NCBI GenBank assembly: GCA_011052815.1
Contig: DRIG01000023.1
Location: 466-64,465 of the forward strand
DNA length: 64,000 bases
Direction: 5' to 3'
DNA from: a candidate division WOR-3 bacterium
GTDB lineage: Bacteria > Hydrothermota > Tepidihabitantia > SM23-42
A program made the position numbers and the translations under genes. This document shows, piece after piece, positions 13,399 to 64,000 of this stretch (position 1 is its first letter; each line of letters begins with the position of its first letter). The notes under the pieces are model-generated. The model was not told the DNA's origin. It worked only from the letters and a program-made list of their open reading frames with translations, and did no database searches.

Positions 13399-13472
13399 CC
13401 CTGTTTGAAGTTGGAATATCTGTTAATAAACTATTTATTTAAATATTTGTCTAAAGTGTGAAAGGAGGAGAA

Positions 13473-13790: not shown

Positions 13791-13864
13791 GAGTTATTCA
13801 ACCAAAATAATCCAACCTCTCCGATCTACGGCTGGAATCACCGTGGATTAAAAAGGAGGTATAT

Positions 13865-15358: not shown

Positions 15359-15362
15359 TTCG

Positions 15363-17886: not shown

Positions 17887-18987
17887 ATGAAAAAATTAAT
17901 CGTGTTCTTTTGTTTTATTTGCATCGCCCTTGGCGAATGGCACCAGAGCAAGGAATTTACCTTACCTAAGGGACTCCAGGTCAATGACCTGGCTATAAGC
18001 AACACAGGAGAGCTGTGGATTCTCTCCTCATCTTCTATCCTTAAATATGAAACGGCTGCGGATGCTCCGTTTTATATCAGGGATTTTGAAAACGGTAAGG
18101 TGCTCGCCGTCTATGACAACACGGTCTATATCATTGACCAAGCCAACCGCTTATACTCCCTCGATCTCGTCAAGGAAGAGATGAAACGTGCTCTCAACAC
18201 GTCCTTAAATATAACCAACCAGATAGTCGTCGTGCCCGTTGAAGAAAAACCCTTCCTTGTAATCCGTGAAGCCAATCGCTTGTCTTTCATCCTAAACGAC
18301 AACCGGGTCGGCTCAATAAACACCGTGGCGGAAAAGATAAGTATGATCCCCACCGGTGATTATGGAAATTCACAAACTCCTTTCTATACCCTGTCCAATA
18401 ACCGCATCTCCGCCTGGGCCGGCGGAACATTCACCAATCCTGATGCCTATACTGAAAATCCGCTCTACAGCACATCAAGCGGTATACTCGACTTTACCGC
18501 CGACCGAAACGGTAATCTCTACATCCTCTTTTCCGACTCCATCGTTGTATTACAACCGAACGGTAAGTACCGGAAGAAAATATCCATCGATAATGTCCCG
18601 ATGAACTCAAAGATACTTACGGATCCGACAAACAACAATGTCGTTATTTTCAACAGGCGATTGAATTCCTTGAAAATTCTCACGGGCATACAAAAAAATG
18701 ACAGCCGGGAGATAATCGTGCTGAACAACAATCAGCCGAATCCTGTTGACAACTACACGGAGATCGAGTTCAGCATAAATCAACCCCTGAATCTGACCCT
18801 CACGATCTACAATTTGATCGGAGAACCGGTCAAGGTCATCGCCAGTGGACGTTATTCCAAAGGTACTCATAGAGCTGTCTGGCGGGCTGACGACGAAAAC
18901 GGAAACCTGGTGCCCAATGGAATCTATTTTTACCGTCTTGAATCGAACAAGGGTGTTGCAATAAGGCAACTTATCGTACTCAGATAA
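17887..18987 (+). CDS. Secreted beta-propeller-like protein with T9SS/FlgD-like CTD
   Basis: Signal peptide; NQPNPV..TEIEF..IYNLIGE..W..DENGNLVPNGIYFYRL; promoter TTGACA-N16-TATAAT at 17818-17845. Confidence 0.8.
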   Translation: MKKLIVFFCFICIALGEWHQSKEFTLPKGLQVNDLAISNTGELWILSSSSILKYETAADAPFYIRDFENGKVLAVYDNTVYIIDQANRLYSLDLVKEEMKRALNTSLNITNQIVVVPVEEKPFLVIREANRLSFILNDNRVGSINTVAEKISMIPTGDYGNSQTPFYTLSNNRISAWAGGTFTNPDAYTENPLYSTSSGILDFTADRNGNLYILFSDSIVVLQPNGKYRKKISIDNVPMNSKILTDPTNNNVVIFNRRLNSLKILTGIQKNDSREIIVLNNNQPNPVDNYTEIEFSINQPLNLTLTIYNLIGEPVKVIASGRYSKGTHRAVWRADDENGNLVPNGIYFYRLESNKGVAIRQLIVLR

Positions 18988-26321: not shown

Positions 26322-29300
26322 CTATTTAGATTTTCTGGCAAGCGCTTCTGCTTTTTTTCTATATGCCGCCGCAAGCTTTTTCTCACCGATCTCCTTCAAT
26401 ATCTCTGCATAGTTGTAATATGCATCCTGAAGCAATCTGATCCGTCCGAGGTCGACAAACAATTCATCGGCTTTTTCCATATACTCTTCGGCTTTCTTCA
26501 ATTTTCCTATACCGGCGTATAACTTCGCAAAATTCAAAGCACAATCCGCTTGCCCCGCCTTGTTACCTGTTCCCTGCGCCAAATCCCATGCGAGATTCAG
26601 GTACTCAAGTGCATTCTCAGGTCGTTCATGTTTCAAACGCTTTATTTCAGCGAGGTAATTATATGCTGTCGCCAACAACTGTTTGTTCCCTAATTCTTTA
26701 ATAATCTTTTCTGCACGCAATAGATGCTGTTCTGCTTTATCATATTCTTTAATTCTCAAATAGAGAATTGCGAGATTACCAAGGGCAGCACTGATGCTCG
26801 TTTTGTCACCTATGCTCTCAGCGATTTCCAAATATTTGTAAAAATACTTGCGTGCCATTTCGTATTCATCCGTGTTCAGGTAAAATATCGCCAGGTTGCT
26901 GTATGCAAATCCTTCACCGCGTCTGTCTCCGATCTCCAGACTAATTTGCAACGCCTTTCGATGAAAATCTAATACCTTTTCACCTTTCTCAAGATATGAA
27001 TACATAATTCCGAGGTTAGTATATGTACGGCCGATATTCTTTTTATCACCGATCTGTTCGAGAATCATCCTGCTCTGTTCATTCAATTCAATCGCCTTTT
27101 TATAATCACCTTTCATATGATATACAATCCCCAATAGATACATAACGTTTCCGATAACCTGTTTGTCATTCAACTCTTCAAGTAACACCCTACTCTGTTC
27201 ATATCTTTTAATAGCCTTATCGTAATCACCATGATTGCGGAATATGCCGGCCAGGCTGATATATGCCTTGGCCCTTATCTTTTTCACGCGTTCATCTTCA
27301 GAGATTCTCTCAATGATATTCAATGTTTTTTCGACTGATTTCCGGGCTTCTTCCATGGCCCCCTGGACTTCATACACGGCGCCACGCAGTAAATAGACCT
27401 CGGCCTGTTCAAGGAGGGCGTCGTCAGAGTCATCCGATAAAATTTCTAAACTTTTGTCCAGAAAATCTAACGCCTCAGTGAAGTTACTCTGGTGCCAATA
27501 AACTCTGGCTGTCTTTCGTTGCGCCCTGGCGCGCAAAATCAAATTTTCACTTTTATTAATTATTGATGCATAAGCATTAATCGCTGCCTCATATGCACCG
27601 CGTATTGCATTAACATCTCCCAATGCTTCATATGCTCTCACCTGTATCATTTTATCTTGTGTACTGACTTCAGGAAATCTGTTAAAGAGAGAAATAACTT
27701 TTTCAAAATATTTAACCGCCTCTTTATTGGCATACTGCTCTTTGGCACGAAAACCTGCTTTCTCCAACCAGACGATAGCCTTCTCTTTTTCATCGCTGTT
27801 TGCATAATGGAGGGCAAGAAAATCAGTGAATTCATCAAGACGGTCAACTAATATCTCTTCCATGATTTCTGCTATTTGACCATGTAATTCCCGTCGTTCT
27901 TTTTTCGGTAGACTGTTGTAAACGACTTCCCGAACCAATGGGTGTTTAAAAGTATACTCCAGCTGCGGTTCCTTTGTTAATAAACGAATATATTCCAGTT
28001 CTTCAAGGGTCGCCAGATGAACACTCATCATCAAACTATCGATTCCTGTTAAACATTCGAGTAAATGCACCAGAAAATTCCTTCCGATGACAGCCGCTTT
28101 CTGGAGTATCACTTTAAGATTAGGTTCAAGGTTGTCAATTCGAGTAGCGATGATTTCCTGAATCGAATCAGGTATCCAATCAATATCGAGATCATCACTC
28201 GCTTTCCAGGTGCCGGATTCACGAATCAGAAGACCTCTGTCAATAAGTGAACGAATAATCTCCTCAAGGAAAAGCGGATTCCCCTCTGCTTTATCAAGGA
28301 TCTTTCTCTGTACCTCTTCAGAAAGTCCGGAAACCTTAAGTAGATTATCTGTAAGCTGCTGACTTACTTCATCGCTGAGTACATGCAGTTCAATTTCAGT
28401 AAAATCACTCCCCAATCTTTTGCGAAAAAACTCCTTCACTTCATATCCATGCGTTTCCTTCGTGAAACGGGAAAGACACAACAGAAGTATTGGTTCGTTC
28501 TCGGTGGTATCAAAGATGAACTTAAGAAAATCAAGTGAGGCATCATCTATCCAGTGGTAATCTTCAATGATCACAAGAAGCGGCGTCTTTTTCGCCGCCA
28601 TATGCAGCAGAATCTTCAAAGCGACAAACATCTGCAGATTCAACCCCTCAGCATCGAGATGTTTGACCTTCTCGCTGAATTCTTTAGGCAAAGGAATTGA
28701 AAGTAAATATAGAATGTAAGGCACAACTTCTTGATCTTTGTGGGGAAGAAGTTTTTTACATACACTCAGAACTTTCTGTTTAATGATATCCATCGTATCC
28801 TTATCCGAAATATGAAAAAGTTGCTTTATGATTTGCAGAATGGGATGATAAGTGATCATCTCGCCGTATGAAAGGCAGCGTCCTTCAATAATCTTTACAG
28901 GTATAGTTTCGGAAATAATCCGCCTTTTTAGTTCGTTGTAAAGTCGTGACTTCCCGATACCCGCTTCACCGAGGACAAAGACAACACCCCCCTTTTTCTG
29001 CTGATAAAGAAGCTGCGCCTTATTATGGAGTAGCGCCAGCTCTTTATCCCTACCGACCATAACCGACTCAAATCCTTCGATACCCCGCTTGGGATCTGCT
29101 TTATCCTTTATCTTCAGAGGCCTGAATATCTGAACCGGTCTACTGATACCCTTCACATGAATCGGCTTCAGGGGTTGGTATTCAAATAGGTAACGCGTCT
29201 GCCGAAAGACCCGCCCGGAAACCAATATTTCCCGATCATCCGCTGCATCCATAAGACGCGAGGCCATATTGACTGCCTCACCGATGATAGTATATTCTTT

Positions 29301-29702
29301 TTTTTCTCTGGAGCCAATAGTACCGGCGAATACCGTTCCGAGATTTATACCTATATGGAGCCCGAGATCACAATCGGCCTTCAGCTTCATTCCCAATGCC
29401 TTATTGATCTCTGGAATGCGCTCCATCATTTCCAGAGCCGTTTTCACTCCCCGTTCAGGGTCATCTTCATGTGCCTGAGGTAAACCAAATACCGCTAGAA
29501 CGGAATCACCTTCATACTTGTGAATCGTCCCACCGTATTTAGAGATAATACGATTGAGGATCTCAAAACAAATATTAAGTGCTTCATTAAGTTCTTCGGG
29601 ATCAAGATTTTCAGAAAGAGCGGTAAAACCAGAAAGGTCCGCAAAAAGGATTGTAACCAGACGGCGCTCTTTCTGGCATTCGTTATGGAGCGAATTTTTC
29701 AT
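26322..29702 (-). CDS. Class III adenylate/guanylate cyclase - STAND ATPase - TPR protein
   Basis: LFADLSGFT, HKYEGD, GEAVNMASRL; Walker A GEAGIGKS; EDYHWID; GNPLFLEE; many TPRs. Confidence 0.92.
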   Translation of the reverse strand: MKNSLHNECQKERRLVTILFADLSGFTALSENLDPEELNEALNICFEILNRIISKYGGTIHKYEGDSVLAVFGLPQAHEDDPERGVKTALEMMERIPEINKALGMKLKADCDLGLHIGINLGTVFAGTIGSREKKEYTIIGEAVNMASRLMDAADDREILVSGRVFRQTRYLFEYQPLKPIHVKGISRPVQIFRPLKIKDKADPKRGIEGFESVMVGRDKELALLHNKAQLLYQQKKGGVVFVLGEAGIGKSRLYNELKRRIISETIPVKIIEGRCLSYGEMITYHPILQIIKQLFHISDKDTMDIIKQKVLSVCKKLLPHKDQEVVPYILYLLSIPLPKEFSEKVKHLDAEGLNLQMFVALKILLHMAAKKTPLLVIIEDYHWIDDASLDFLKFIFDTTENEPILLLCLSRFTKETHGYEVKEFFRKRLGSDFTEIELHVLSDEVSQQLTDNLLKVSGLSEEVQRKILDKAEGNPLFLEEIIRSLIDRGLLIRESGTWKASDDLDIDWIPDSIQEIIATRIDNLEPNLKVILQKAAVIGRNFLVHLLECLTGIDSLMMSVHLATLEELEYIRLLTKEPQLEYTFKHPLVREVVYNSLPKKERRELHGQIAEIMEEILVDRLDEFTDFLALHYANSDEKEKAIVWLEKAGFRAKEQYANKEAVKYFEKVISLFNRFPEVSTQDKMIQVRAYEALGDVNAIRGAYEAAINAYASIINKSENLILRARAQRKTARVYWHQSNFTEALDFLDKSLEILSDDSDDALLEQAEVYLLRGAVYEVQGAMEEARKSVEKTLNIIERISEDERVKKIRAKAYISLAGIFRNHGDYDKAIKRYEQSRVLLEELNDKQVIGNVMYLLGIVYHMKGDYKKAIELNEQSRMILEQIGDKKNIGRTYTNLGIMYSYLEKGEKVLDFHRKALQISLEIGDRRGEGFAYSNLAIFYLNTDEYEMARKYFYKYLEIAESIGDKTSISAALGNLAILYLRIKEYDKAEQHLLRAEKIIKELGNKQLLATAYNYLAEIKRLKHERPENALEYLNLAWDLAQGTGNKAGQADCALNFAKLYAGIGKLKKAEEYMEKADELFVDLGRIRLLQDAYYNYAEILKEIGEKKLAAAYRKKAEALARKSK

Positions 29703-51947: not shown

Positions 51948-53660
51948 TCACTGCTCATAGCGATAAGGTAGATATTCCGGATTCCATATTGCGTGGCTTA
52001 TCAATTCCCGGAGTTTATCATCCGCCAAATGAATTCCTAAACCGGCATCACGTGCTTCCTTAGCAACTGCAAATGCCACTTCTTCAGAAACTTTTCGGAT
52101 ATCACTTATCTCAGGCAGAAGATTTCCTTTTGCTGCAGCTGAATGAGGAATAAGATCCTGCAGTGCCTTAGCCGCCGCATAGAACATCGCATCAGTAACT
52201 TTTGATGTCATAGAAACAATCGCTCCAAGCCCGACCCCCGGGAAAATATACATATTATTACACTGCGTGATTTTCCTGGTTTCGCCATTAACCACTACAG
52301 CGTCAAAAGGACTGCCGGTTGCAATTAAACAAGAACCATTGGTGGCGGTAAAGGCTTGCTCAGGTGTACACTCACATTTTTTATTCGGATTAGACAGGGC
52401 GAAAATCACCGGTTGAGCTGTATTCTCAGCCATCTGAGCAAGTACCTCGGCGGTAAAACTGTTCGGCATACCGGATGTCCCGATTAACACGGTCGCCTTG
52501 CTGTTCAGAACCGTGTCATATAAATCAATCTTATCAGGATTACGGAGTTTCCAGGAGCCGGTATCTGCACGCGAGCGGGCAAAAGGCGCCTGATATTCGT
52601 GAGGATTGGTGTCATCAAAAACAAGCCCATTGTGACCCAATGGATAGATGCGTTCTTTTGCTTCTTTTTCTGTCAGCCCTTCATCAATCATTGCATGGGT
52701 TAAAATGTTCGCGATACCATAACCGGCTTGACCGAATCCGAAGAAAACATAAATTTGGTCTTTCAACTTCTCTCCTTTGCCGTAAATAGCTGAGAGCAGA
52801 GCAGCAAGCGTCACTGCACCGGTACCCTGAATATCATCATTAAAAGAACATATGCGTTCACGATAGCGATTAAGAATGCGCAGTGCATGCTGTTTTCCAA
52901 AATCTTCCCATTGCACAAGGGCATGAGGAAAAACTCTTTTCACACTCTGCACAAAATGTTCAATCACTGAATAATATTCATCTCCAGTGAGCCGTTCATG
53001 TCTGAGGCCGAGATAAAGAGGATCATTAAGTAAATCCTTATTGTTTGTTCCCACATCAAGCAGTATCGGCAGACACAAAGCCGGATGTAACCCTGCTCCG
53101 ACTACATACAAACTCGTCTTGCCGACCGGTATTGCCATACCACCGACTCCCTGATCACCCAGGCCTAAAATCCGCTCACCGTCAGTGACGACGATTAAAT
53201 TAACATTGGAAAAAGGCGCATTGGCGAGAATCGAATCAATCATTGTGATTTGATCAGCCGCAATATACAAACCGCGTGGTCGGCGGAACATATGACTGAA
53301 GGTCTTCGCCGCCTCACCAACCGTCGGTGTATATACTATCGGTAACATTTCTTCAGCATTATCCAGGACAAGTCGATAAAAAAGTGTCTCATTACGATCC
53401 AGCAACCCAAGCAGAAAAATGAATTTTTCGATCGGACTCGTCTTCTTTGAATAATTTTCATATACCCTTTTCACCTGTTCATCCATTGTCGAACTGTGAC
53501 GCGGTAAAACCCCATGTAAATCAAGTTGTTCACGCTCCTGCTCAGTAAATGCTGAACCTTTATTATAAATTGGATGTTCCACCAGCAGCCTTCCTTTAAA
53601 AGGAACCCTGATGTATTTCTCACCATTCATCGGGTCAACCTGTATTGCAAAGTCTCTCAT
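51948..53660 (-). CDS. maeA: NAD-dependent malic enzyme
   Basis: YTPTVG, VTDGERILGLGD, QWEDF, FNDDIQGT, LSNP, QCNN. Confidence 0.95.
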   Translation of the reverse strand: MRDFAIQVDPMNGEKYIRVPFKGRLLVEHPIYNKGSAFTEQEREQLDLHGVLPRHSSTMDEQVKRVYENYSKKTSPIEKFIFLLGLLDRNETLFYRLVLDNAEEMLPIVYTPTVGEAAKTFSHMFRRPRGLYIAADQITMIDSILANAPFSNVNLIVVTDGERILGLGDQGVGGMAIPVGKTSLYVVGAGLHPALCLPILLDVGTNNKDLLNDPLYLGLRHERLTGDEYYSVIEHFVQSVKRVFPHALVQWEDFGKQHALRILNRYRERICSFNDDIQGTGAVTLAALLSAIYGKGEKLKDQIYVFFGFGQAGYGIANILTHAMIDEGLTEKEAKERIYPLGHNGLVFDDTNPHEYQAPFARSRADTGSWKLRNPDKIDLYDTVLNSKATVLIGTSGMPNSFTAEVLAQMAENTAQPVIFALSNPNKKCECTPEQAFTATNGSCLIATGSPFDAVVVNGETRKITQCNNMYIFPGVGLGAIVSMTSKVTDAMFYAAAKALQDLIPHSAAAKGNLLPEISDIRKVSEEVAFAVAKEARDAGLGIHLADDKLRELISHAIWNPEYLPYRYEQ

Positions 53661-53878
53661 ATTACCTCCAATTTCAGAATTCCAAAATATAAGATATGCT
53701 TCATGGCTATGTTTTTCAGAACCCTACATCTTCTTCAGTATATACCATTCAAACAAAAAGTCAAATGTTTTAAATGTAAATCTAAAAAACTACACCTTTT
53801 ATAATTCTTTCAAGATAATTTTGTATTCAAGAAAAAAACATTAATTCAATAATTTGAAGATTAGAGATTTGCCCCTAA

Positions 53879-56581
53879 CTAGTTCTTTCTCCTGAAAAGA
53901 CTGATGATGCCGGGAATGAAAAGAACGGTCATCACAAAGCATGCTGCAACCCCCACGGTCAGTAAAGTGCCCAAACTGCGATATGCTGGATAACTGCTAA
54001 ATGAAAGCGCCCCGAACCCGGCCATTGTAGTCAGAGATGTCAGAAGAATTGCCTTGCCCGTACTGCGCAGCACATCCGATGTTTTATCAAAACCTTCGTA
54101 TTTATAGCGATGAATGACATGCACACCATCATCAATACCAATCCCGACGATCATTGGTATTCCCATCACATTGATAAAGTCAAGAAGCATACCAAATGAT
54201 TTCATAATGCCCATCATCACAATACCTCCGCTGATAAGCGGTAGCATCCCCAGCAGGGCAAGACGCAGACTGCGAAAATCAATCCACAAGAGGAGCAAGA
54301 CAACGATAAGCGTCAAAATTGTTGCCCATAATCCATCTTTCCCAATCAGATTAATAAGATGTAAAAACATTGGAGGTGTGCCGGTTACCCGGGGGCTGAC
54401 CAGTTGCAGTTGTTTGGTAAACCGATCAAGCACAGCAAAATCCCACATCTGTTTGCGTGCATAGATTGTTACAAGAAAGTTATCACCACGTTCATTAACA
54501 TACCGATCTTTTATGTGCTGAGGCAGAACATCAAGGGTAATGAGTTCAGGATTTGCCATATCAAATAATTTCTTTTTTAAAACCGGATAATAATACTTCT
54601 GAAATTTATTGAGCTGACGCACTGCCAGTACTGGCTTATCCTGAATTGCTTCAATCAGTTCCATAATAAGACCCTGAACATCTTCCTGTTCTGGGTCTCC
54701 GATAATGAGTTTACATTTCTCATCAATCTTATCCTGACCTCCGATATATGCCAGCTGAGCAAGCTCGTAGATATTCAGATCAAGCCGCTTTAGCTGGGCA
54801 ATTAATTTTTTAAGTGAATTTACTTCTAAAAGGGCTATTTTCTTATTCTTTCCAATTTTTTCTCTTAGGGCTTTAACATAGGGCTGGCGCAACCTCTGCA
54901 CTGATTCAGGCGGACAGACATCACCGATTCCCTCAACAATACTTAATGCCGGCAAGGCCTTTGCTTTTTGTTCCAGTTTCCAGGATTCTTCAATTGAAGA
55001 AGCAGTAACCATGGCAAAATCAGGGCTCATTTCAAATGCCTTTATAATTGTATCCTGAAGATGGATTACTGGAATATCCGGCTCTAAACTCATCATATTA
55101 TAATTGAATTTTAGATTGAATGCTTGATATAACAGAATACCAGTAATAACCACCCCGCCTATTATGTAAAGCGCTCTATGCTTTACAACATTTTGACCGA
55201 CATTACCAAGAAAATGAAATTCAGAAACCTTTGGTTTTACCATCTCCTTTTTAACGCGGAAGATCCAGCGTTCCCGCACAACCAGGATCGCAGGCAGTGC
55301 GGCAAGCGAAGTAATCATTGCACTACAGATCCCAATACCGAGCACAATCCCCATCTCTTTAATACCACGGGTCGACGAGATTGCCAGGGCAAAAAATGCC
55401 GCCGCCGTAGTCAGGGCACCAGTAATTATACCGGAACCCGAACGGGCAAAAGTTTCTTCCATTGCCTGTCTCTGATCAGAATCGATATTACGGCGCTCAT
55501 TATAAACTGAAATCAGGTGAATCGCATAATCAATACCAAGGCCAATAAGTATCACAGCGAATATCGAAGTCATCATATTAAGCCGACCAATTGTAATAGC
55601 CACAATGCCCGCAGTAATAATTATTGCGATAACAAGATTTAAACCGGCAAGGATCGGTGCACTCCACATCCGAAAGCTAATAATAAAGAGGATTATCACA
55701 AGCAGTAGGGCGATTATTGAACTTAAGAACATCGCCTTTTCCGTATATTCCATTTCATATTTCTGAATTGGAATAATACCAGTGACACCGGCATGAATCC
55801 CGAGATATTTTTTTTGTGTCCTTTCGATAATCTCTTCAATGGCACTGGTTGCCGCAATGTCTTTTTCAATATCGATCGAAGAAAAGGTTGGTTTACAGGA
55901 AAGAAGTAGAGTTTTCTTATTGTAGGAAATAAAATAAAGATCGCCATATAGAAAACGCTCAACCATTGAGTCAATCAGAACATGATTTGCACCTACCGGG
56001 GTATTTATAAATGTATCCATTGTTTTAAGCCAGTGGTATAAGCCATCGAGTGCGCGGGCTGCTTCGTCTTCTTTTGTCCGCGTATCCAGTGCCTGATCAT
56101 TGCCAACATATTCTTTTTCAAAATTATTATTAATGTTATCAAGCAAAGGTACTAAATTCAAATCATTGAACATATCAGTTGTATTTCTGAGATCTTCAAT
56201 GTCAGTAAGCATAAAACCGTGCCGACCAAAAAATTCCTTATCGAGTTTATAGTCAACCCGTTCAATATACGCCTCTAATTCTTCGATTTCTGGAGCAATT
56301 TCATCAGCAAATTTTTTGATTGCCGCCTCTTCACCTTGAATAACAATAAGTATTGTTGAGGTGCTCTTAAATTCTTTTATGATACGCTCGAACTCCTGAG
56401 CCATAGGATCGCCTGAAGGCAGCATATCTGACCAGCGCATATCCATTCGCAGAGCAGAAGCAAAGATCACTGAAAGGATAATAAGAACAAAAATAACAGC
56501 CAATACCCACCAGGGATGTGTTGCCACAAAACGTGCCCACTGCCGTAATAATCTTTCTTTCATATATTTCTTTCTCCTCAA
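53879..56581 (-). CDS. MMPL/RND-family transporter
   Basis: Two TM halves, GLGIDYAIH and GIGIDDGVH motifs, large periplasmic loops. Confidence 0.92.
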   Translation of the reverse strand: MRRKKYMKERLLRQWARFVATHPWWVLAVIFVLIILSVIFASALRMDMRWSDMLPSGDPMAQEFERIIKEFKSTSTILIVIQGEEAAIKKFADEIAPEIEELEAYIERVDYKLDKEFFGRHGFMLTDIEDLRNTTDMFNDLNLVPLLDNINNNFEKEYVGNDQALDTRTKEDEAARALDGLYHWLKTMDTFINTPVGANHVLIDSMVERFLYGDLYFISYNKKTLLLSCKPTFSSIDIEKDIAATSAIEEIIERTQKKYLGIHAGVTGIIPIQKYEMEYTEKAMFLSSIIALLLVIILFIISFRMWSAPILAGLNLVIAIIITAGIVAITIGRLNMMTSIFAVILIGLGIDYAIHLISVYNERRNIDSDQRQAMEETFARSGSGIITGALTTAAAFFALAISSTRGIKEMGIVLGIGICSAMITSLAALPAILVVRERWIFRVKKEMVKPKVSEFHFLGNVGQNVVKHRALYIIGGVVITGILLYQAFNLKFNYNMMSLEPDIPVIHLQDTIIKAFEMSPDFAMVTASSIEESWKLEQKAKALPALSIVEGIGDVCPPESVQRLRQPYVKALREKIGKNKKIALLEVNSLKKLIAQLKRLDLNIYELAQLAYIGGQDKIDEKCKLIIGDPEQEDVQGLIMELIEAIQDKPVLAVRQLNKFQKYYYPVLKKKLFDMANPELITLDVLPQHIKDRYVNERGDNFLVTIYARKQMWDFAVLDRFTKQLQLVSPRVTGTPPMFLHLINLIGKDGLWATILTLIVVLLLLWIDFRSLRLALLGMLPLISGGIVMMGIMKSFGMLLDFINVMGIPMIVGIGIDDGVHVIHRYKYEGFDKTSDVLRSTGKAILLTSLTTMAGFGALSFSSYPAYRSLGTLLTVGVAACFVMTVLFIPGIISLFRRKN

Positions 56582-56589
56582 TTTATAGT

Positions 56590-57783
56590 TTAGAAGTAAA
56601 CCGTAGCACGCAGCAGACCGCTGTTTCCAAAATTATGATTGAATGCCTTGCCTTCAGCACCAATAAATATATTGAACATCAAAGCGAGATCGATGTTTTC
56701 AAAGAGACTGCTGTTTATCATCGGCACCAATACCACACTCTGATCACTAATACTGAAAATGAACATACTGCCTACAGTGGTTAAATCAGTAATGGGGTAT
56801 TGCGTAAGACCATATAACTGGTCGCGTGAGATTGTTTTGACCTCCCCTGTGATATAACGCATCCAATCATTGAGGTCATAATTATGGTAATCATCTTTTG
56901 CAATCGAGTTGTGATGATACTCGAACATTATATAAAAACCATTCTTAAAGGTGTAATCACCACCTGCCAGACACTCATAAGAATTCTCTCCTTCATCAGC
57001 CATAACATTATAAACACCTTCACCCCACACTCCACAGCCGAGCAGTTCTCCCACAAAATCAGCACCGAGCATGGTTCGTTCTTCCGTAGCAGACTGGAAT
57101 GTATAAAAATCGGTCGTTGTATGCCAGAATCGATATGCAATAGCTGAAATATCAAAATGTCCCAGTCCGAGTTTTACCCGACCGAGTTTACCTGATTGCT
57201 GCCAATCAGCATTGATCGGCGTGTAAAGTGCAGTAATACTGATACGTGGCACCGGGTATATCTCTATTCTGAGCGCATTGTGGCCGGACTGTTCATAGGT
57301 TGGATCGAGCGCATCTTTGATGTTTAATTGATCAGTGGGATTGGCAAAATAACCAGTGCCAAACGAAATCTGCTGTTTACCAATCATAAAAGCAAACTTA
57401 GGAACATTCAGGCGGACATAGGCATTGTCCAGATATATTGTGTCATTGAAATAACTCTCATAATAGGGCTGCATCTCAGGCGGAATTGAATCGGCGATCT
57501 CATCCGGCAAAAAATCTAAAATATTCCAGTGGCGTAGACCAAAGTAATGAAGATAGATGAGGTCTGCTCCAAAACGCACATTTTTGTTTTCGGTATTTTT
57601 TAAATCGATACGTAGTTTTCCATAGCCGGTCTGGTTGTAATCACGGTTCAGTAAATATCCGGCATATTGTGGTTCAAAATAACCGTAAATCTCAACCTGG
57701 CCATATAGCCCGGCTAAAGGCAGGATCAGAACCAAAATGATTATCAATTCAATAATCCAGTTCTTATTACATAGATTCTTCAT
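56590..57783 (-). CDS. Outer membrane beta-barrel protein (porin-like)
   Basis: Signal peptide, GKQQISFG, C-terminal ...ATVYF. Confidence 0.7.
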   Translation of the reverse strand: MKNLCNKNWIIELIIILVLILPLAGLYGQVEIYGYFEPQYAGYLLNRDYNQTGYGKLRIDLKNTENKNVRFGADLIYLHYFGLRHWNILDFLPDEIADSIPPEMQPYYESYFNDTIYLDNAYVRLNVPKFAFMIGKQQISFGTGYFANPTDQLNIKDALDPTYEQSGHNALRIEIYPVPRISITALYTPINADWQQSGKLGRVKLGLGHFDISAIAYRFWHTTTDFYTFQSATEERTMLGADFVGELLGCGVWGEGVYNVMADEGENSYECLAGGDYTFKNGFYIMFEYHHNSIAKDDYHNYDLNDWMRYITGEVKTISRDQLYGLTQYPITDLTTVGSMFIFSISDQSVVLVPMINSSLFENIDLALMFNIFIGAEGKAFNHNFGNSGLLRATVYF

Positions 57784-58556
57784 TGTTTCATTCCTTCCTC
57801 AGTGAATAACGCGTCTGGTAAATCAACATTATAATTAATCTCTATGATTTCCATAGTCGTCTTGGTATCGTCGAGTTTGTTGTACATCGTAAATTTCATC
57901 GGCGTATAGATGCCGTCGATAAGTTCTATGTCCGTGCAGATGAGTTGCTTTTCACGCAGCTCGGGATCATCATCATGGAAATAGTCAATGACAATCGGCA
58001 CAAACGTTTTTTTGTCGACCCAGACAATAATCCGCGAGTAACCGGCGTCACTCTCTGGTTTACGGCTCAATTCCAGTTTATAACATTGACGCCCTTCCTT
58101 TTTCTCGTCCTCCAGACGTACGGATTCGTATTCTTCGACAAAGGTATTGGAACCGCCCATATCCTCATACGAAAAGTCACTGCCTTCAAGTTTTTGCCGG
58201 CGTGCATGACTGGCAAGTTTACGCACATGATTTCTTTTGGGAAAATAGATCCAGATGTCGTCACCGTCATTGAGCATCAGGATAGTCTGTCCCTTGACAC
58301 GGGAAGGCTCAAGGTATTTCATAAGGCTCTTTTTACCTCGACCTTTTGAATAGGTGTGATAGAAAAACGAACGCTCCTCACCTGACGTGGTTGTGATCGT
58401 CATCTTCATCTTTGCTTCTGATTGTTCCGGATTCATCGCCTGCGTCATAGTGTTAATAATCTCACCTGCAGTAATATTGTCCTCTGCCCAAACCAGGTGG
58501 CTGTATATTGCACCTGCCAAAAAAAGTAAGATAAAACCAAGTAAATATTTAAACAT
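57780..58556 (-). CDS. Outer membrane lipoprotein-sorting (LolA-like) protein
   Basis: P..VKGQTIL, IWIYFP...VRK, GSDFSYEDM, LPDALF; start ATG 58556 with SD. Confidence 0.85.
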   Translation of the reverse strand: MFKYLLGFILLFLAGAIYSHLVWAEDNITAGEIINTMTQAMNPEQSEAKMKMTITTTSGEERSFFYHTYSKGRGKKSLMKYLEPSRVKGQTILMLNDGDDIWIYFPKRNHVRKLASHARRQKLEGSDFSYEDMGGSNTFVEEYESVRLEDEKKEGRQCYKLELSRKPESDAGYSRIIVWVDKKTFVPIVIDYFHDDDPELREKQLICTDIELIDGIYTPMKFTMYNKLDDTKTTMEIIEINYNVDLPDALFTEEGMKQ

Positions 58557-58567
58557 ATTTCCTCCTT

Positions 58568-59317
58568 TTACCATAATCGATATCTTCTTTTTGTCTGTTT
58601 ATCATCTGGTTCAGTCCGGGGCTGTAATTTTTCAAAGAAGAACTGCATTATTTCTTCAAACTCGCCCGGCACATATATTTTTATTGAACCCCTGGCTGCA
58701 CCAAGAATGCGTTCAATTAAGTCCTGATACATCTTTATCTTGATACTCGTCTGTGCACATATCTTCTTAATATCAGTCGCACCATTGAGCAAACTTTTGC
58801 AGACAACTTCATTTATATGTCTTCCTAAATTTATTATAATCTCGCCCATATATTCAGGGTACGAGGTATTGAACACACCTTCTTTTATACCCTGCTTAAC
58901 AATCTTTTCAATTATCCCTGAATTTTTTTCAATCGAACGTTCAAACATCCGCGCACGCAGCAAGTAATTCTCTTCCTGGTAAAGGGTCTTTAAGAATATA
59001 AGAAAGAGGTCAATATTTTTTACCTTGTAGCCGGTTCCAGCGCGAAATATTTCATTTATCTTTTCTATTGCACTTTTCTTTGAATCCGCAATCAGCTGCA
59101 ATTGCCGCGACATTTCAGTAACCATCTCCTCAACCAGAGAATCGAGCAATTGCATCTTGGAACTGAAATAATGATAAAAAGTACCCTTTGCAATATCAAG
59201 GGCATCGATTATATCCTGAACAGTGGTGGTCTCATAGCCTTTCTGGAAGAACAATCGTCGGGCAGTATCAATAATCTCCTGCCGGCGAACCCGGTAATCT
59301 TGTCCCTGCTTAACCAT
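58568..59317 (-). CDS. TetR/AcrR transcriptional regulator
   Basis: IIDTARRLFFQKGYETTTVQDI....KGTFYHYF. Confidence 0.95.
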   Translation of the reverse strand: MVKQGQDYRVRRQEIIDTARRLFFQKGYETTTVQDIIDALDIAKGTFYHYFSSKMQLLDSLVEEMVTEMSRQLQLIADSKKSAIEKINEIFRAGTGYKVKNIDLFLIFLKTLYQEENYLLRARMFERSIEKNSGIIEKIVKQGIKEGVFNTSYPEYMGEIIINLGRHINEVVCKSLLNGATDIKKICAQTSIKIKMYQDLIERILGAARGSIKIYVPGEFEEIMQFFFEKLQPRTEPDDKQTKRRYRLW

Positions 59318-59328
59318 AATTCCTCCTT

Positions 59329-59386
59329 TAGACCGACCGTCGGTTTAGGGAATAATATTATAGACCGACCGTCAGTCTATAATATT
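59329..59386. promoter_or_regulatory. Two palindromic TetR-type operators
   Basis: TAGACCGAC-C-GTCGGTTTA (59329-59347) and the 33-bp AATATTATAGACCGAC-C-GTCAGTCTATAATATT (59354-59386), overlapping the -10 of TTGACA-N16-TAGAAT. Confidence 0.85.
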
Positions 59387-59670
59387 CTATCAATTTTTTT
59401 TGATTTGTCAAGCCCTTTTTATCGAAAAACTTCTGACTGCGGGTGTGAAACATTATCTGTAATTCTACCTATGTAATTCTACGTATAATATTCCATTTTT
59501 AAATAATGGGCTGTCGAGTATATTTTAAAGTTCAACAAGCGACTTAAGAACGGAGTCAATAAAGATGAAAGAGAAGCAGAAGCCAAAAGAAAACAGTGTC
59601 CTTCAAAAATCAATTAATTACAGAAAAACGGACAAACAACCATTGTTCGTTGAAAAGGAGGTGAGCCACG

Positions 59671-60213
59671 ATGAAAGGCATAATAAATAAAGGCATTCAG
59701 GAAATGGTCGAGAGTATGTACGGTACAGATGCCTGGAATACAGTGAAAGAAAAAGCCGGGTGTAATGAACCGTTCTTTGCAATCAGCCTTGATTACCCCG
59801 ATGAAATGACCATCGCACTTATTAAAGCGGCTGCCGAGGTCTCAGGAAGGGACGAGGAAACAGTAATGGTTGAATACGGAAAGTTTATGGTTCCCAACAC
59901 CCTGAAGAAATATTATCCCACATATTTCAAACTGGCGGGTTCCACGGCCCGGGAATTTCTTCTCAACATGGGAAAAGTTCATGAACAGGCGACGCGCAGC
60001 ATCACCAATGCAAAACCGCCCCATTTTGATTATGAAGAGACGTCCGACGGTAAACTACGGATGTGCTATCATTCAAAACGAAATCTCTGTGCGGTGTTGC
60101 GTGGATTGATTCTCGGAGTAGGCATTCTGTTCAATGAAAAGCTGAAAGTACAGGAGATCGCCTGTGTACACAAAGGTGACCCCAACTGCATTATGGAGGT
60201 AACCTTTTCATGA
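59671..60213 (+). CDS. Heme NO/O2-binding (H-NOX) protein
   Basis: MKGII N-terminus, DYPD, proximal His (VHEQ), P..F, YHSKR (YxSxR), GLILG. Confidence 0.93.
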   Translation: MKGIINKGIQEMVESMYGTDAWNTVKEKAGCNEPFFAISLDYPDEMTIALIKAAAEVSGRDEETVMVEYGKFMVPNTLKKYYPTYFKLAGSTAREFLLNMGKVHEQATRSITNAKPPHFDYEETSDGKLRMCYHSKRNLCAVLRGLILGVGILFNEKLKVQEIACVHKGDPNCIMEVTFS

Positions 60214-62372
60214 AAAAAACAGATAAGTCAATCCGGATAATTCCAGAACAATTGACAACCTTTGCCCCTTTTATTATCCTTACAGATAAGAAACTCATCA
60301 TCAAATGGGCGAGTAAAGCCGTCATCAAAAGAGACAAAAAAATTATCGGCAGAAAAATATCGGATGTCCTGACTTCAAAAACACCCATAAAAAAGATAAC
60401 CGTGAGCGGACTAAAAAAGCACCAGGGAAAACGTTTTAATTTCATCCTGTTGAATAAAAAAGCACCGGTGAATCTCATCGGCTACTGGCTTGAAACAGAA
60501 AAAGGTTTTTTACTCATGGCAACGCCAGATGTAAAAACCACCGAAGAACTTTCCACCCTCTCGTTTGAAGATTTTCCCGAGAATGACCGCACCATTGACT
60601 TCCTCGTCGCCCAGGATGAAATAAAATATTCGTTGAATGAAGCGACACGCACCTCGAACATCCTCAAAGAACAGAATCAGGCTCTGGAAAAGTCTAAGAA
60701 AGAACTTGAATCATTGAATGCTGATTTAAAAAAGGAGATAGCCGAACGTAAACGTATTGAGGCTGAACTGGTTGAAGCCCGTAAAGTGGCACTTCAGGCG
60801 TCTCGTACAAAATCAGAATTTCTCGCGAGCATGAGCCATGAAATACGAACGCCGATGAATGCGATCATCGGAATGGCGGACCTGTTGTGGGAGACCGACT
60901 TGACCCCCGAACAACAGCAGTACGTGAAGATATTCCGCAATGCCGGAGAGAATCTTCTCAATATAATCAATGATATTCTTGACATTTCCAAAGTCGAAGC
61001 CGGCCAGATCGAACTCGAAAATATCGACTTTAATCTGAACGACCTAATTGAAAAGACGTGTGAAATAATGGCGCTTCGCGCCCATACAAAAAATCTCGAG
61101 CTCACCTGCTATTTGAAGTCCGATGTTCCTACTGAACTGGTCGGAGATCCCATCCGGCTGCGTCAGATCATCGTGAATCTCGTGGGTAATGCGATAAAAT
61201 TCACCGAAGAAGGTGAAGTCGTCATCAGGATTGAAAAACTTAAAGAAAAGAAAGACGGAGAAAAAAATTCTGTAACCATCCTCTTTTCGGTATCAGACAC
61301 CGGCATCGGGATACCTGAAGATAAATTAAACACGATCTTCGACACCTTCACACAGGCTGATGCATCCACGACCAGAAAATACGGCGGTACCGGTTTAGGA
61401 CTCGCCATCTCCAAAAAACTGGTTGAACTGATGAACGGCAAAATTTGGGTCGAAAGTGAAGTAGGAAAAGGAAGTACCTTTCGGTTCACCGCAAAATTCG
61501 GGATTGCAAAAAAGATAGAAGAAGAAAAAACAACACCCCTTATCAATCTCAATGGTGTCAGCATTCTCGTCGTCGACGACAACGCCACCAATCGGCTAAT
61601 CCTGAGGGAACTCCTCAACGGCTGGGGTGCCGAGGTGACCGAGGCGGAAAACGGCGCACGAGCCGTCGCCTTAGTGAAAAAAGCATCAAGAACAGACAAT
61701 TTCTACGACCTCATCCTGCTGGACTGCCGAATGCCCGGCATGGGAGGATTCGAAGTTGTTGAAAAGATCAATGAGATCCTTGGAGAAACAAAAACGACCA
61801 TTATGATGCTCACCTCAGACCGACGCAAAGGAGATATCGCGAAATGCCGTGAATTGAATATCGCAACCTATCTGGTGAAGCCGATAAAAAAATCAGAATT
61901 ACAGAATGCAATCAAGGTGGCACTGGGTAAAGCCAAAGTTAAAGCGAAAAAAGACAAAAAGAAAAAAAAGGACCATCGAAAAAGCACCTCTGCTCCCAAT
62001 ATCCTGCTTGTTGAAGATTCAGAAGACAACCGCTTTTTGATTCAGGCGTACTTGAAAAAAATCGTCTGCCGCATCGATATAGCGGAAAACGGAGCAATCG
62101 GTGTTGAAAAGTTCAAAAAGAACAAATATGATATCATTCTTATGGATATGCAGATGCCGGTGATGGACGGTTATACGGCGACAAGAGAAATCCGTAAATT
62201 GGAAAAAGAAAAGGGATTGAAACACACACCCATTATCGCCCTCACCGCTCACGCGTTGAAAGAAGAGATACAAAAGAGCCTTGATGCAGGATGCGACATT
62301 CATCTGTCAAAGCCTATTAAAAAAGTTAAACTCCTGGAAATAATTAAAAAATATACAGGAGAAAATTTATGA
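60210..62372 (+). CDS. Hybrid histidine kinase: HNOBA-like - HisKA - HATPase - REC - REC
   Basis: SHEIRTPMN, NLVGNAIKF, DTGIG, GGTGLGL; two receivers LDCRMP and MDMQMP. Confidence 0.95.
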   Translation: MKKTDKSIRIIPEQLTTFAPFIILTDKKLIIKWASKAVIKRDKKIIGRKISDVLTSKTPIKKITVSGLKKHQGKRFNFILLNKKAPVNLIGYWLETEKGFLLMATPDVKTTEELSTLSFEDFPENDRTIDFLVAQDEIKYSLNEATRTSNILKEQNQALEKSKKELESLNADLKKEIAERKRIEAELVEARKVALQASRTKSEFLASMSHEIRTPMNAIIGMADLLWETDLTPEQQQYVKIFRNAGENLLNIINDILDISKVEAGQIELENIDFNLNDLIEKTCEIMALRAHTKNLELTCYLKSDVPTELVGDPIRLRQIIVNLVGNAIKFTEEGEVVIRIEKLKEKKDGEKNSVTILFSVSDTGIGIPEDKLNTIFDTFTQADASTTRKYGGTGLGLAISKKLVELMNGKIWVESEVGKGSTFRFTAKFGIAKKIEEEKTTPLINLNGVSILVVDDNATNRLILRELLNGWGAEVTEAENGARAVALVKKASRTDNFYDLILLDCRMPGMGGFEVVEKINEILGETKTTIMMLTSDRRKGDIAKCRELNIATYLVKPIKKSELQNAIKVALGKAKVKAKKDKKKKKDHRKSTSAPNILLVEDSEDNRFLIQAYLKKIVCRIDIAENGAIGVEKFKKNKYDIILMDMQMPVMDGYTATREIRKLEKEKGLKHTPIIALTAHALKEEIQKSLDAGCDIHLSKPIKKVKLLEIIKKYTGENL

Positions 62373-62695
62373 CAGGGAATCAAGAAAATTCAAATAAAAA
62401 ACACGTCGAAGTTCATATCGACGAAGAACTCAAAGAATTGATTCCGGGTTATCTTAAAAACCGCCATAAAGACATCGAGTCTATCACAGAAGCGTTGAAA
62501 AATGATGATTTCTCCATAATCCAGACACTCGGCCACAGCATGAAGGGTTCTGGCGGTGGTTATGGTTTTAATCTGATATCTGAAATCGGTAAGAAGCTGG
62601 AACAGGCAGCTAAGGATAAATCCCGTGAAACAATCACGGCATGCCTAACCGAATTGAAAGATTATCTCGATCATTTAGAGATCGTGTATGAATAA
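62369..62695 (+). CDS. Hpt phosphotransfer protein
   Basis: LGHSMKGSGGGYG. Confidence 0.93.
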   Translation: MTGNQENSNKKHVEVHIDEELKELIPGYLKNRHKDIESITEALKNDDFSIIQTLGHSMKGSGGGYGFNLISEIGKKLEQAAKDKSRETITACLTELKDYLDHLEIVYE

Positions 62696-64000
62696 AGAAG
62701 AACAACCATTGATTCTGGTGGTCGATGACGACCGTGACCTTCTCGCGTTGTTCGAACGCCTGCTGACCAAGCACAACTATCGGGTTATCACCGCAGACAG
62801 CGGTATTAAGGCATGGGAAGTACTGTCAGAAACAAAACCGGATATCATTCTTCTTGATGTCATGATGCCGGGAATGAACGGTTATCGGTTCTGTGCCAGG
62901 CTCCAAGCCGACAGCGAAACCGCTTTCATCCCGGTGATCTTCGTCACCGGTCTTAAAGAAGAGCACAACAAAGCAAAAGCATTTTCAGTTGGTGCAGTGG
63001 ATTATTTAGTGAAACCGATTGATAAAAAAATTCTTATCGAAAAGATCGAAAAACACCTGAAAACACAACGACAGTGGCAGAGTTTACGCAAGGTCTCTTT
63101 TCGTACCGGTACTCGGCTGGCATCATTCAACTTCACCCGATTCAAAGAATTTTTAAAAAAACAACTGAATTTATCCGTCAAAGAAGAATATAAACTTGCG
63201 ATGATAACCCATACGGAAATTTATTCCGCTGCTGCGGAACTCGGTGTAACGAATGAAAAGATCGCCCGCTACATCGCAGCTTTCCTTGACCTGCCGTATC
63301 TTGACTATATCGATCCGTCAACCGTGGAACTCGGTGTTCTACCGGTGCCGTTCTGTCGGACGAATCATGTTTTGGCAGTAAAAAGCAACAGCCGTAACCG
63401 TGTTTTCGTTCTGAGCAATCCCTTTGACCTTGAGCTGCTGGATATCATAGAAAAGTTAAAAAAACCTGAAGATAAACCACTCAAACTTGTCATAACCAAA
63501 CCGGAAAATATCGAAGCATTCCTCAAAAGCGGAACAGGCGACACCAGCACCGTAGACAAGGAACTTTCATTTAAGAAGGATCAGGATAAACTCACGCGAC
63601 TTCCTGAAGTCAAAGAAACCGCTTCTGCCCGGGAAGAGGATATGGATGAATTCCCGATCCTCTCCATTGCAAACAACATTCTTCAGACAGCCGTGGCCCA
63701 ACGGGCGAGTGATATCCACATTGAACCAAAAAAAGATAAAACGGTCGTCCGTTTCCGTATTGACGGAGATATGCACGACCTTTTCACTTTGAAAAAAAAG
63801 ACCGGTGTGATGTTGATCAATCGGTTCAAGGTAATCGCTGATATGGACATAGCGGAGAAACACAAACCCCAGGATGGCTCAGTGGAAGCAGTGATAAGTG
63901 ATCGAAATTTCAAATTACGACTGGCGACGACTTCCACCCCTGATGGAGAGAGCCTCATCATCAGACTTCTGGAGCCGAATGTAAAACCGAAAAAGTTGAC
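62688..64000 (+). CDS. Receiver domain fused to a GspE/PilB-family ATPase (partial, runs off the window; absent from the ORF track)
   Basis: Manual translation from ATG 62688, no stop: ILVVDDD...LLDVMMP...FVTG...YLVKP, then LPYLD..., SNPFD, RASDIHIEP, VRFRIDG, MDIAEKHKPQDG, RLATTSTPDGESLIIRLL. Confidence 0.9.
   Translation, partial: MNKEEQPLILVVDDDRDLLALFERLLTKHNYRVITADSGIKAWEVLSETKPDIILLDVMMPGMNGYRFCARLQADSETAFIPVIFVTGLKEEHNKAKAFSVGAVDYLVKPIDKKILIEKIEKHLKTQRQWQSLRKVSFRTGTRLASFNFTRFKEFLKKQLNLSVKEEYKLAMITHTEIYSAAAELGVTNEKIARYIAAFLDLPYLDYIDPSTVELGVLPVPFCRTNHVLAVKSNSRNRVFVLSNPFDLELLDIIEKLKKPEDKPLKLVITKPENIEAFLKSGTGDTSTVDKELSFKKDQDKLTRLPEVKETASAREEDMDEFPILSIANNILQTAVAQRASDIHIEPKKDKTVVRFRIDGDMHDLFTLKKKTGVMLINRFKVIADMDIAEKHKPQDGSVEAVISDRNFKLRLATTSTPDGESLIIRLLEPNVKPKKL

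Follow-up and report, generated by a model that had tools for sequence, protein, structure and literature searches.

A haem gas sensor operon with a predicted phosphorelay onto a two-receiver GspE/PilB-type ATPase

Introduction

The DNA analysed here (64,000 nucleotides, positions 466 to 64,465 of contig DRIG01000023.1 in GenBank assembly GCA_011052815.1; hereafter the window) comes from a candidate division WOR-3 bacterium. Its 3' end carries overlapping genes for a haem sensor protein of the H-NOX family, a cytoplasmic hybrid histidine kinase, a single-domain histidine phosphotransfer (Hpt) protein and, cut by the window end, an ATPase of the GspE/PilB type that begins with a receiver domain (REC). 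A first reading of this DNA from its letters alone (the original prediction) had proposed that gas directly switches a pilus or secretion motor here. Is the phosphorelay wired to the ATPase, and does the ATPase drive a fibre? With moderate confidence, we find the operon best explained as a gas-controlled phosphorelay onto an extension ATPase that assembles a co-encoded pilin-like protein, in which the gas signal probably switches the motor directly through phosphorylation.

Extent of the operon

The DNA beyond the window end was obtained from a Logan contig of 16.4 kb (L001), found via a look-up with the Hpt protein. It shows no mismatches to window positions 52369-64000, an overlap of 11.6 kb, and extends 4.2 kb past the window end. 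There the ATPase gene is completed and followed by genes for a zinc-ribbon membrane protein and a prepilin-type protein (Table 1). The order and coordinates of the first four genes are as originally predicted, with ATGA overlaps at 60210-60213 and 62369-62372 and an 8-nt overlap at 62688-62695. The stop codon of the ATPase gene is separated by 1 nt from the zinc-ribbon gene, which in turn joins the prepilin-type gene in a further ATGA overlap. A gap, of about 100 bp, first appears 3' of the prepilin-type gene and contains a perfect TTGACA-16-TATAAT site (12/12 of the sigma-70 consensus); the gene following it, a YkuD-DUF4846 fusion, is unrelated to the operon. Because all six genes overlap or sit 1 nt apart, and the perfect promoter comes only after the pilin gene, the H-NOX unit is a six-gene operon of H-NOX, hybrid kinase, Hpt, ATPase, zinc-ribbon membrane protein and prepilin-type protein. 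At its 5' end, a strong Shine-Dalgarno sequence (AAGGAGGTG) lies a few bases before the H-NOX start codon at 59671. The operon promoter should lie within 59318..59670, where a promoter scan gave weak sigma-70-like sites only and did not fix its position.

The arrangement is genuine, and purifying selection acts on it. In another metagenome, a JGI contig with 94.6% DNA identity carries the six genes in identical order, and dN/dS between the two is 0.05-0.19 for all six. As the arrangement is found in this contig, in L001 and in a second Logan contig (L002, which spans only the 3' end of the kinase gene through the 5' part of the ATPase gene), an assembly chimera is ruled out. The domain matches are strong and the array is tightly coupled, so that we are not dealing with a chance pattern. 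The downstream DNA, whose retrieval the original prediction had proposed, contains no further receiver gene, whether as part of the operon or elsewhere within the 4.2 kb on L001. A truncated or pseudogenised ATPase is also ruled out, and with it the truncation before the Walker motifs that the prediction had named among the outcomes fatal to its proposal: the protein is complete, has Walker A and B motifs and a second intact receiver, and is under purifying selection.

The ATPase and its family

The complete ATPase, here called RGR, has 853 residues (L001 10320-12881) and matches Pfam T2SSE with an E-value of 6.1e-108 (361 bits against a cut-off of 24.9). The window ends inside its N2 domain, ahead of Walker A; the part within the window matches Response_reg (1.5e-29), MshEN (8e-9) and T2SSE (2.3e-25, profile positions 3-115 of 370). 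From N- to C-terminus, RGR consists of a first receiver (REC1, residues 1-135), an MshEN-like helical and α/β region (145-280), a disordered linker, N2 and the C-terminal ATPase domain, and a second receiver (REC2, 732-852). The MshEN match covers residues 207-280, where the AlphaFold2 model, which was used for domain boundaries only (pLDDT 69, pTM 0.41), has a four-helix segment and an α/β segment. The ATPase domain contains Walker A (465), Asp box (492), Walker B region (527), His box (551) and a tetracysteine motif of two CxxC pairs at 598 and 632 (C598, C601, C632, C635). The phosphorylation residues of the receivers are D13/D14-D57-T87-K109 in REC1 and D738/D739-D781-T809-K831 in REC2.

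RGR proteins form a widespread, unstudied family. Homologues fall into more than 120 protein clusters with 52-62% identity over 96-100% of the length, about 850 residues and the same architecture. In an alignment of 29 sequences, the ATPase motifs (Walker A, Asp box, Walker B, His box), the four cysteines and, in both receivers, the phospho-accepting aspartate, one aspartate of the acidic pocket and the lysine are invariant. A scan with one genome per species yielded 44 loci that match RGR over most of its length (L003-L046), and an open reading frame (ORF) search recovered RGR in 44/44. All are from metagenome-assembled genomes (MAGs), for which binning errors are possible, with titles spanning about eight phyla: Syntrophales, Smithella, Syntrophus, Desulfobacteraceae, Geobacter, Omnitrophota, Aminicenantes, Chloroflexota, Dehalococcoidia, Elusimicrobiota, Fermentibacteria, Coriobacteriia, Actinobacteria, Gemmatimonadota and Eubacteriales.

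Among proteins of solved structure, the RGR core is closest in sequence to EpsE/GspE of V. cholerae (E-value 3.5e-82), followed by PilB/PilF. Its tetracysteine motif aligns with the CxxC pairs of EpsE, and an N1-like domain, aligning from residue 225, is kept. The N1 domain of GspE binds GspL; the tetracysteine motif is typical of extension ATPases and lacking in retraction ATPases (PilT). Scored against the equivalog models of NCBIfam, RGR reaches 400.5 for TfpB (cut-off 850), 399.2 for GspE (630), 373.3 for PilB (676) and 263 for ComGA (300). Since it stays below all these named cut-offs, we consider it a separate subfamily.

The 24-residue motif of the c-di-GMP receptor domain MshEN, RLGxx(L/V/I)(L/V/I)xxG(L/V/I)(L/V/I)xxxxLxxxLxxQ, in the strict or the relaxed form of Wang et al. 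2016, is present in 0/29 RGR members, and RGR as a c-di-GMP receptor was therefore rejected.

The hybrid kinase and the Hpt protein

The kinase is built of an H-NOX-coupled N-terminal domain (residues 1-190), HisKA, HATPase_c and two consecutive receivers. The matches to HisKA (1.2e-21), HATPase_c (1e-33) and two stretches of Response_reg (1.8e-50) are all above cut-off, and the N-terminus gives a sub-threshold match to HNOBA. His210 and the N (323), G1 (363), F (377) and G2 (392) boxes are in place, as are D456/D457-D505-T535-K557 in the first receiver and E602/D603-D646-T679-K701 in the second. The original prediction had described the catalytic and phosphoacceptor residues as intact, and all were located, in H-NOX, kinase, Hpt and ATPase alike.

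The two halves of the kinase have different relatives. Residues 172-719, comprising the transmitter and both receivers, are 62.6% identical to a PAS/GAF hybrid kinase that precedes Hpt-RGR at locus L082. For residues 1-187, the relatives are kinases adjoining H-NOX genes in two loci (L088, L090), with 43-44% identity to their N-termini; the H-NOX proteins encoded there are 71-72% identical to the one studied here. Judged by these similarities, the kinase is a chimera in which an H-NOX-coupled sensor domain has replaced the sensor region of an RGR-type kinase. The replacement speaks for RGR as the intended destination of the H-NOX signal.

The Hpt protein matches Pfam Hpt (E-value 1.7e-8, 35 bits against a cut-off of 24.6), with His56 in the sequence GHSMKG as phospho-acceptor. 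Among 40 RGR loci with upstream DNA, Hpt orthologues (36-55% identity) end at most 100 nt from the RGR start in 31, and an Hpt gene, usually overlapping RGR, lies within 1.5 kb in at least 33; the true number may be higher, since BLAST-level matches to Hpt also occurred in three of the loci counted as lacking it. Because Hpt adjoins the RGR family in so many independent loci, a transfer from Hpt to an ATPase receiver is the most economical wiring, and the adjacency supports the RGR receivers as predicted phospho-targets of Hpt. A mirror-tree analysis of pairwise distances, comparing Hpt with REC1, REC2 and the ATPase core, gave partial correlations around 0, to which misalignment of ORF starts may contribute. 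The original prediction had placed the cognate receiver of Hpt on the ATPase; the conserved adjacency speaks for this, while the single fused receiver it had in mind has become two, one at each end.

The H-NOX sensor

The H-NOX protein matches Pfam HNOB over profile positions 1-162 of 163 (E-value 3.5e-45, 154.3 bits against a cut-off of 25.5). Its best match among solved structures is the Nostoc H-NOX protein Alr2278 (E-value 3.6e-27). His104 aligns with the proximal histidine of Alr2278 and YHSKR (133-137) with its YQSTR, where Y133, S135 and R137 form the haem-propionate motif Y-x-S-x-R; P116/P117 are present. Val142 occupies the position of Met144 in Alr2278, and the distal tyrosine, which H-NOX proteins need to bind O2, is missing. 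We therefore predict a protein of the NO/CO type with an apolar distal pocket. Since it is closest to the NO/CO-type Nostoc protein and has no distal tyrosine, nitric oxide (NO) is the likelier ligand than O2. The gene overlaps the kinase gene by 4 nt, and its dN/dS is 0.07 over the 73 C-terminal codons available from the 94.6%-identical relative. Next to this observed adjacency, binding of haem and gas and control of the adjacent kinase are predicted properties.

Within the operon, H-NOX is a lineage-specific input from outside the conserved module. In a genome scan seeded with the ATPase, no H-NOX gene lies within 10 kb of any of 79 ATPase loci, of which about 44 carry RGR and the remainder ordinary PilB/GspE genes. 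The converse survey, which the original prediction had suggested as a source of further REC-T2SSE fusions next to H-NOX, was seeded with an H-NOX alignment in metagenomes and yielded at least 47 confirmed H-NOX loci; it brought up no such case, as Hpt-RGR was found in none of the 47 loci among the matches listed. In the ten closest H-NOX loci among these matches (63-76% identity) other kinases follow, for example a 469-residue non-hybrid kinase with a single-domain receiver in L086.

The conserved gene neighbourhood

The conserved unit consists of hybrid kinase, Hpt and RGR, often joined by a zinc-ribbon protein and a pilin-like protein. In most loci a large hybrid kinase lies 5' of Hpt. Its sensor domains vary, with PAS/GAF in L082, dCache-HAMP in L083-L085, and lengths of 900-1700 residues in others. 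On the 3' side, downstream DNA was sufficient in 33 loci; RGR is followed by the zinc-ribbon protein in at least 11 of them and by a prepilin-type ORF in at least 9. In one locus (L134) the order RGR, zinc-ribbon protein, pilin recurs with a pilin that is clearly orthologous to the one in this operon.

The zinc-ribbon protein combines a CxxC...CxxC zinc ribbon at its N-terminus with a single transmembrane helix and a C-terminal domain that contains cysteine. It matches no family in Pfam or NCBIfam, a Foldseek search of the PDB with a weak model (pLDDT 65) gave nothing below E = 1, and a homologue search gave four matches. The prepilin-type protein has the putative cleavage-site sequence KKNG/FTMVEI, with matches to N_methyl and IV_pilin_GFxxxE. 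The zinc-ribbon protein occurs in two fusions, each seen in one MAG, so that sequencing or assembly errors are possible. In L033 (10901-13864) it is fused to the C-terminus of RGR in a 987-residue ORF, and in L012 (13841-14653) to a 3keto-disac_hyd (DUF1080-like) domain, the same domain that makes up the head of the pilin-like protein at several other loci.

Several loci depart from this order. In four MAGs of Syntrophales and Syntrophus (L019, L021, L022, L031) an NlpC/P60 peptidoglycan hydrolase with SH3b domains (about 476 residues) replaces the hybrid kinase before Hpt-RGR, and in the first three of these a pilin-like gene lies directly 3' of RGR. Smithella and one related MAG have a gene for a REC-GGDEF diguanylate cyclase next to Hpt, located between Hpt and RGR in L010 (7648-8589) and L044 (9974-10915) and just 5' of Hpt in L013 (2713-3699); one Hpt may thus serve a c-di-GMP enzyme as well as the ATPase. 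In the P0005 lineage (L083-L085, e.g. L083 560-13822), the dCache-HAMP kinase, Hpt and RGR lie inside an oxidative-stress cluster with two AhpC genes, rubredoxin, a flavodiiron-type ODP protein, an Fe superoxide dismutase (SOD) and a rubrerythrin encoded in overlap with the stop codon of RGR. That RGR is linked to oxidative stress in general was rejected, as other loci gave isolated matches only (one SOD, one AhpC). Finally, six loci from the candidate phyla radiation and other MAGs (L047, L049, L050, L054, L073, L076) have a gene for a receiver of about 121-123 residues near an ordinary PilB, followed in the first three by PilC; such a stand-alone receiver may represent, in unfused form, the control of a pilus ATPase by a receiver.

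To search for the platform protein with which ATPases of this family typically occur, we built a PilC/GspF hidden Markov model from 21 ORFs that adjoin ordinary PilB/GspE genes (loci L051-L081), a cluster identified by position, length and sequence. The model readily matches the PilC proteins beside ordinary PilB in L047, L049 and L050. It has no match in the 64-kb window, in L001 with its 4.2-kb extension, or in 46 RGR loci with about 10 kb on each side. This context is typical of the GspE/PilB family and is not an absolute criterion for membership.

Proposed mechanism and alternatives

The operon is best read as a two-component phosphorelay with an unusual, motor-type output. Fusions of receivers to many kinds of output domains are common, and c-di-GMP or accessory proteins are known to gate the assembly ATPases of type IV pilus and type II secretion systems. 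In the mechanism we propose, the ligand state of the H-NOX haem, with NO as the most likely ligand, would set the autophosphorylation of the partner kinase. Phosphate would pass from His210 to a kinase receiver, on to His56 of Hpt, and from there to one or both RGR receivers, where phosphorylation would gate either the activity of the hexamer or the membrane docking of this GspE/PilB-type extension ATPase. In the RGR family, a receiver would assume the regulatory role that MshEN with bound c-di-GMP plays in MshE-type ATPases. With the zinc-ribbon membrane protein as its anchor, RGR would assemble the prepilin-type protein into a short fibre or pseudopilus, with platform protein and prepilin peptidase probably borrowed from elsewhere in the genome. 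Gene order, coupling, conservation and the kinase chimera support the wiring. The biochemistry is inferred throughout, from each transfer of phosphate and the direction in which NO acts to the receiver used and the nature of the output.

Several observations weigh against this reading. No platform gene was found near any of the 46 RGR loci, and RGR scores under the equivalog cut-offs for GspE, PilB and TfpB. Zinc-ribbon and pilin genes were detected in only about one third of the loci, the pilin-like proteins are not all orthologous, and besides the operon pilin there is no other prepilin motif in the window and its extension. The circuit has four receivers and so several candidate targets for Hpt, and among the loci sampled H-NOX is linked to RGR only here and in the 94.6%-identical relative. 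Direct gas-controlled switching of a motor, as originally predicted, thus has the coupled unit, the conserved Hpt-RGR pair and the prepilin gene on its side; the motor role itself is a prediction, and lacks a PilC/GspF gene nearby.

The absence of PilC/GspF around 46 loci from many phyla could also mean that RGR, zinc-ribbon protein and pilin-like protein are a self-contained minimal machine that works without PilC/GspF, the zinc-ribbon protein serving as membrane adaptor. RGR would then belong to a new type IV filament branch and not be an accessory ATPase. The recurring order of the three genes with overlaps, the fusions of the zinc-ribbon protein to RGR and to 3keto-disac_hyd, and its lack of a matching Pfam or NCBIfam family or PDB fold would fit such a machine. 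Yet, to our knowledge, every characterised GspE/PilB-type ATPase acts through a polytopic platform protein, our search for one covered 10 kb on each side of RGR, and only a third of the loci have detectable zinc-ribbon and pilin genes, so we regard this machine as improbable. With the same reserve we view the broader notion that the cassette of Hpt, RGR, zinc-ribbon protein and pilin is an unrecognised, self-contained type IV filament branch for platform-free assembly or extrusion of one pilin-like protein by the small zinc-ribbon membrane protein and an ATPase gated by phosphorylation, here rewired to a haem gas sensor. If RGR were instead a phosphate sink, or an ATPase with a signalling or regulatory function, and the pilin-like neighbour incidental or a regulated cargo, this would account for the lack of platform, secretin and alignment-complex genes nearby, for the wide variation of the genes 3' of RGR, including the rubrerythrin gene of the P0005 lineage, and for the REC-GGDEF gene between Hpt and RGR in Smithella. 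We consider this unlikely, as the whole family keeps without variation the catalytic motifs of extension ATPases, the tetracysteine motif and the N1-like docking domain, and prepilin-type genes recur directly 3' of RGR in translational coupling.

Doubts about the wiring concern both ends of the relay. Hpt proteins often serve several receivers, some RGR loci have extra stand-alone REC or REC-GGDEF genes, and the closest H-NOX relatives among the matches listed pair with a plain kinase and a single-domain receiver (L086). The main target of Hpt might accordingly be encoded elsewhere, with the RGR receivers served by other kinases or acting as non-phosphorylated docking modules and gas control being indirect or absent. 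The 8-nt overlap of Hpt and RGR and their adjacency across phyla make this very unlikely, as do the phosphorylation residues kept by both RGR receivers in 29/29 sequences and the lack of another receiver gene in the operon or the 4.2 kb downstream. At the input end, H-NOX might sense O2, CO or redox state and not NO, making the circuit an aerotolerance or oxygen-avoidance response of an anaerobe. The titles of RGR MAGs point mostly to anaerobic lineages (Syntrophales, Desulfobacterota, Elusimicrobiota, Coriobacteriia), one RGR lineage resides in the AhpC/rubredoxin/flavodiiron/SOD/rubrerythrin cluster, and a BatA aerotolerance gene is located in the window. We hold this to be not likely, given the NO/CO-type Nostoc protein as closest structure, Val142 at the position of Met144 without a distal tyrosine, and an oxidative-stress neighbourhood that is not general. 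Of these readings, we prefer the gas-controlled phosphorelay onto an extension ATPase, which we compare with known systems in the following.

Relation to known systems

Relays of H-NOX, hybrid kinase and Hpt are known from Vibrio (HnoX-HqsK-LuxU-LuxO), Silicibacter sp. TrichCH4B and V. fischeri (HnoX-HahK) (PMC6759604, PMC4436077, PMC12369376). They share with this operon a stand-alone H-NOX protein adjoining a cytoplasmic kinase without a sensor domain of its own, and the sequence of hybrid kinase and Hpt. The known relays have regulators of transcription or biofilm formation, or c-di-GMP enzymes, as their outputs, whereas here the gene overlapping Hpt encodes a two-receiver assembly-type ATPase; the kinase also differs in having two receivers and a transmitter half of the RGR-linked type. 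In the literature searched, we found no H-NOX signalling onto an assembly ATPase, and the only link between H-NOX and pili was an indirect proteomic effect in Caulobacter.

The fusion of a receiver to such an ATPase is already catalogued and uncharacterised. Supplementary Table 4 of Wang et al. 2016 lists REC-MshEN-T2SSE (Gmet_3473 of Geobacter metallireducens; β-, γ- and δ-proteobacteria) as a domain listing without function, context or a second receiver. Compared by listed architecture only, Gmet_3473 resembles RGR in its N-terminal receiver, MshEN-type N-domain and T2SSE; RGR differs in its C-terminal receiver, the lack of a c-di-GMP motif and its conserved Hpt partner. A Geobacter MAG (L040) contains a 38%-identical RGR relative, aligned to query residues 26-848. 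No paper of the literature searched mentions Gmet_3473. The original prediction had known of no comparable circuit. This holds for the two-receiver form, the cassette with Hpt, zinc-ribbon and pilin genes, and the coupling to H-NOX, which are undescribed in the literature searched, but not for the REC-MshEN-T2SSE fusion as such.

MshE/PilB2-type ATPases (V. cholerae MshE, P. aeruginosa PA14_29490) are extension ATPases gated by c-di-GMP (PMC5013675). Like RGR, they are of the hexameric GspE/PilB type, with an N-terminal regulatory module ahead of N1/N2 through which the signal acts directly on the motor. In RGR, by contrast, the input would be aspartyl phosphorylation of fused receivers, the c-di-GMP motif is missing in 29/29 members, and no platform gene is nearby. 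The best matches to the RGR core, EpsE (GspE) and the PilB/PilF proteins of Geobacter and Thermus (PDB 1p9r, 4ksr, 4pht, 5tsg, 5it5; E-values 1e-72 to 3.5e-82), share with it Walker A and B, the Asp and His boxes, the zinc-binding CxxC...CxxC and an N1-like domain. They are set apart by the sub-equivalog scores of RGR, its receivers at both ends and the absence of gspF/pilC or other gsp/pil genes alongside. A functional parallel is found in Synechocystis, where PATAN-REC receivers are reported to act in trans and non-transcriptionally on PilB1, the extension motor of type IV pili (bioRxiv 10.1101/2021.06.11.447907). As described there, a separate receiver protein binds PilB1 and the kinase is of the CheA type, whereas in RGR the receiver is fused twice and would be fed by Hpt.

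Other genes of the window

Table 1. Features at the 3' end of the window and on contig L001 beyond it. Coordinates past 64000 are window equivalents.
Feature	Window position	L001 position	Strand	Basis or remark
TetR-family regulator gene	58568-59317		-	TetR_N in gene calls of identical contig L001
Intergenic stretch, divergent TetR-family gene to H-NOX gene	59318..59670		+	Sequence read directly
H-NOX haem sensor gene, 180 aa	59671..60213		+	ORF and Pfam HNOB
Cytoplasmic hybrid histidine kinase gene, 720 aa	60210..62372		+	Pfam and motif positions
Single-domain Hpt phosphotransfer protein gene, 108 aa	62369..62695		+	Pfam Hpt
RGR gene, first 437 codons of 853 aa	62688..64000		+	No stop in window
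Zinc-ribbon membrane protein gene, 181 aa	65251-65796	12883-13428		Past window end
Prepilin-type protein gene, 180 aa	65793-66335	13425-13967		Past window end
YkuD (L,D-transpeptidase)-DUF4846 fusion, 502 aa	66386-67943	14018-15575		Past window end

Divergent from the operon, a block on the reverse strand (53879-59317) comprises genes for the TetR-family regulator, a TP_0789-like lipoprotein, a 397-residue protein with no recorded Pfam match and a 900-residue MMPL/RND-type transporter, which look like a separate efflux or lipid-export operon. The remainder of the window consists of housekeeping genes, which include those for PolA, ribosomal proteins, EF-Ts, HtrA, SecDF, DnaK/DnaJ/GrpE and riboflavin. 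Within a housekeeping run of Band_7, class-V aminotransferase, DivIVA and PNP lies a MEDS-GGDEF diguanylate cyclase (2861-3865, forward), and among housekeeping genes a 328-residue ORF with an IS200-like Y1 transposase domain (16762-17748, reverse). A 1126-residue protein (26322-29702, reverse) combines an adenylate/guanylate cyclase catalytic domain with an AAA_16 ATPase and many TPR repeats. Two proteins (24460-26226, reverse; 17887-18987, forward) have type IX C-terminal sorting domains (Por_Secre_tail / CHU_C), which hints that the source organism may have a type IX secretion system, as in the FCB group and related phyla; the GC content is 43.7%.

Implications

If our reading is true, the motor would itself be the last response regulator of the phosphorelay. 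No shorter route would then be known by which an environmental signal reaches secretion or the assembly of a fibre, and such a motor would offer an experimentally clean handle on hexamer switching through BeF3-, aspartate mutants and phosphorylated Hpt. For H-NOX biology, it would add an output that is neither transcriptional nor based on c-di-GMP. The kinase is a clear natural case of rewiring by domain swap, in which an output module that already existed received an H-NOX input. As RGR is common in uncultured anaerobes of many phyla, a single characterised member would annotate hundreds of genes, and there is a real chance that the RGR cassette marks a new minimal filament system.

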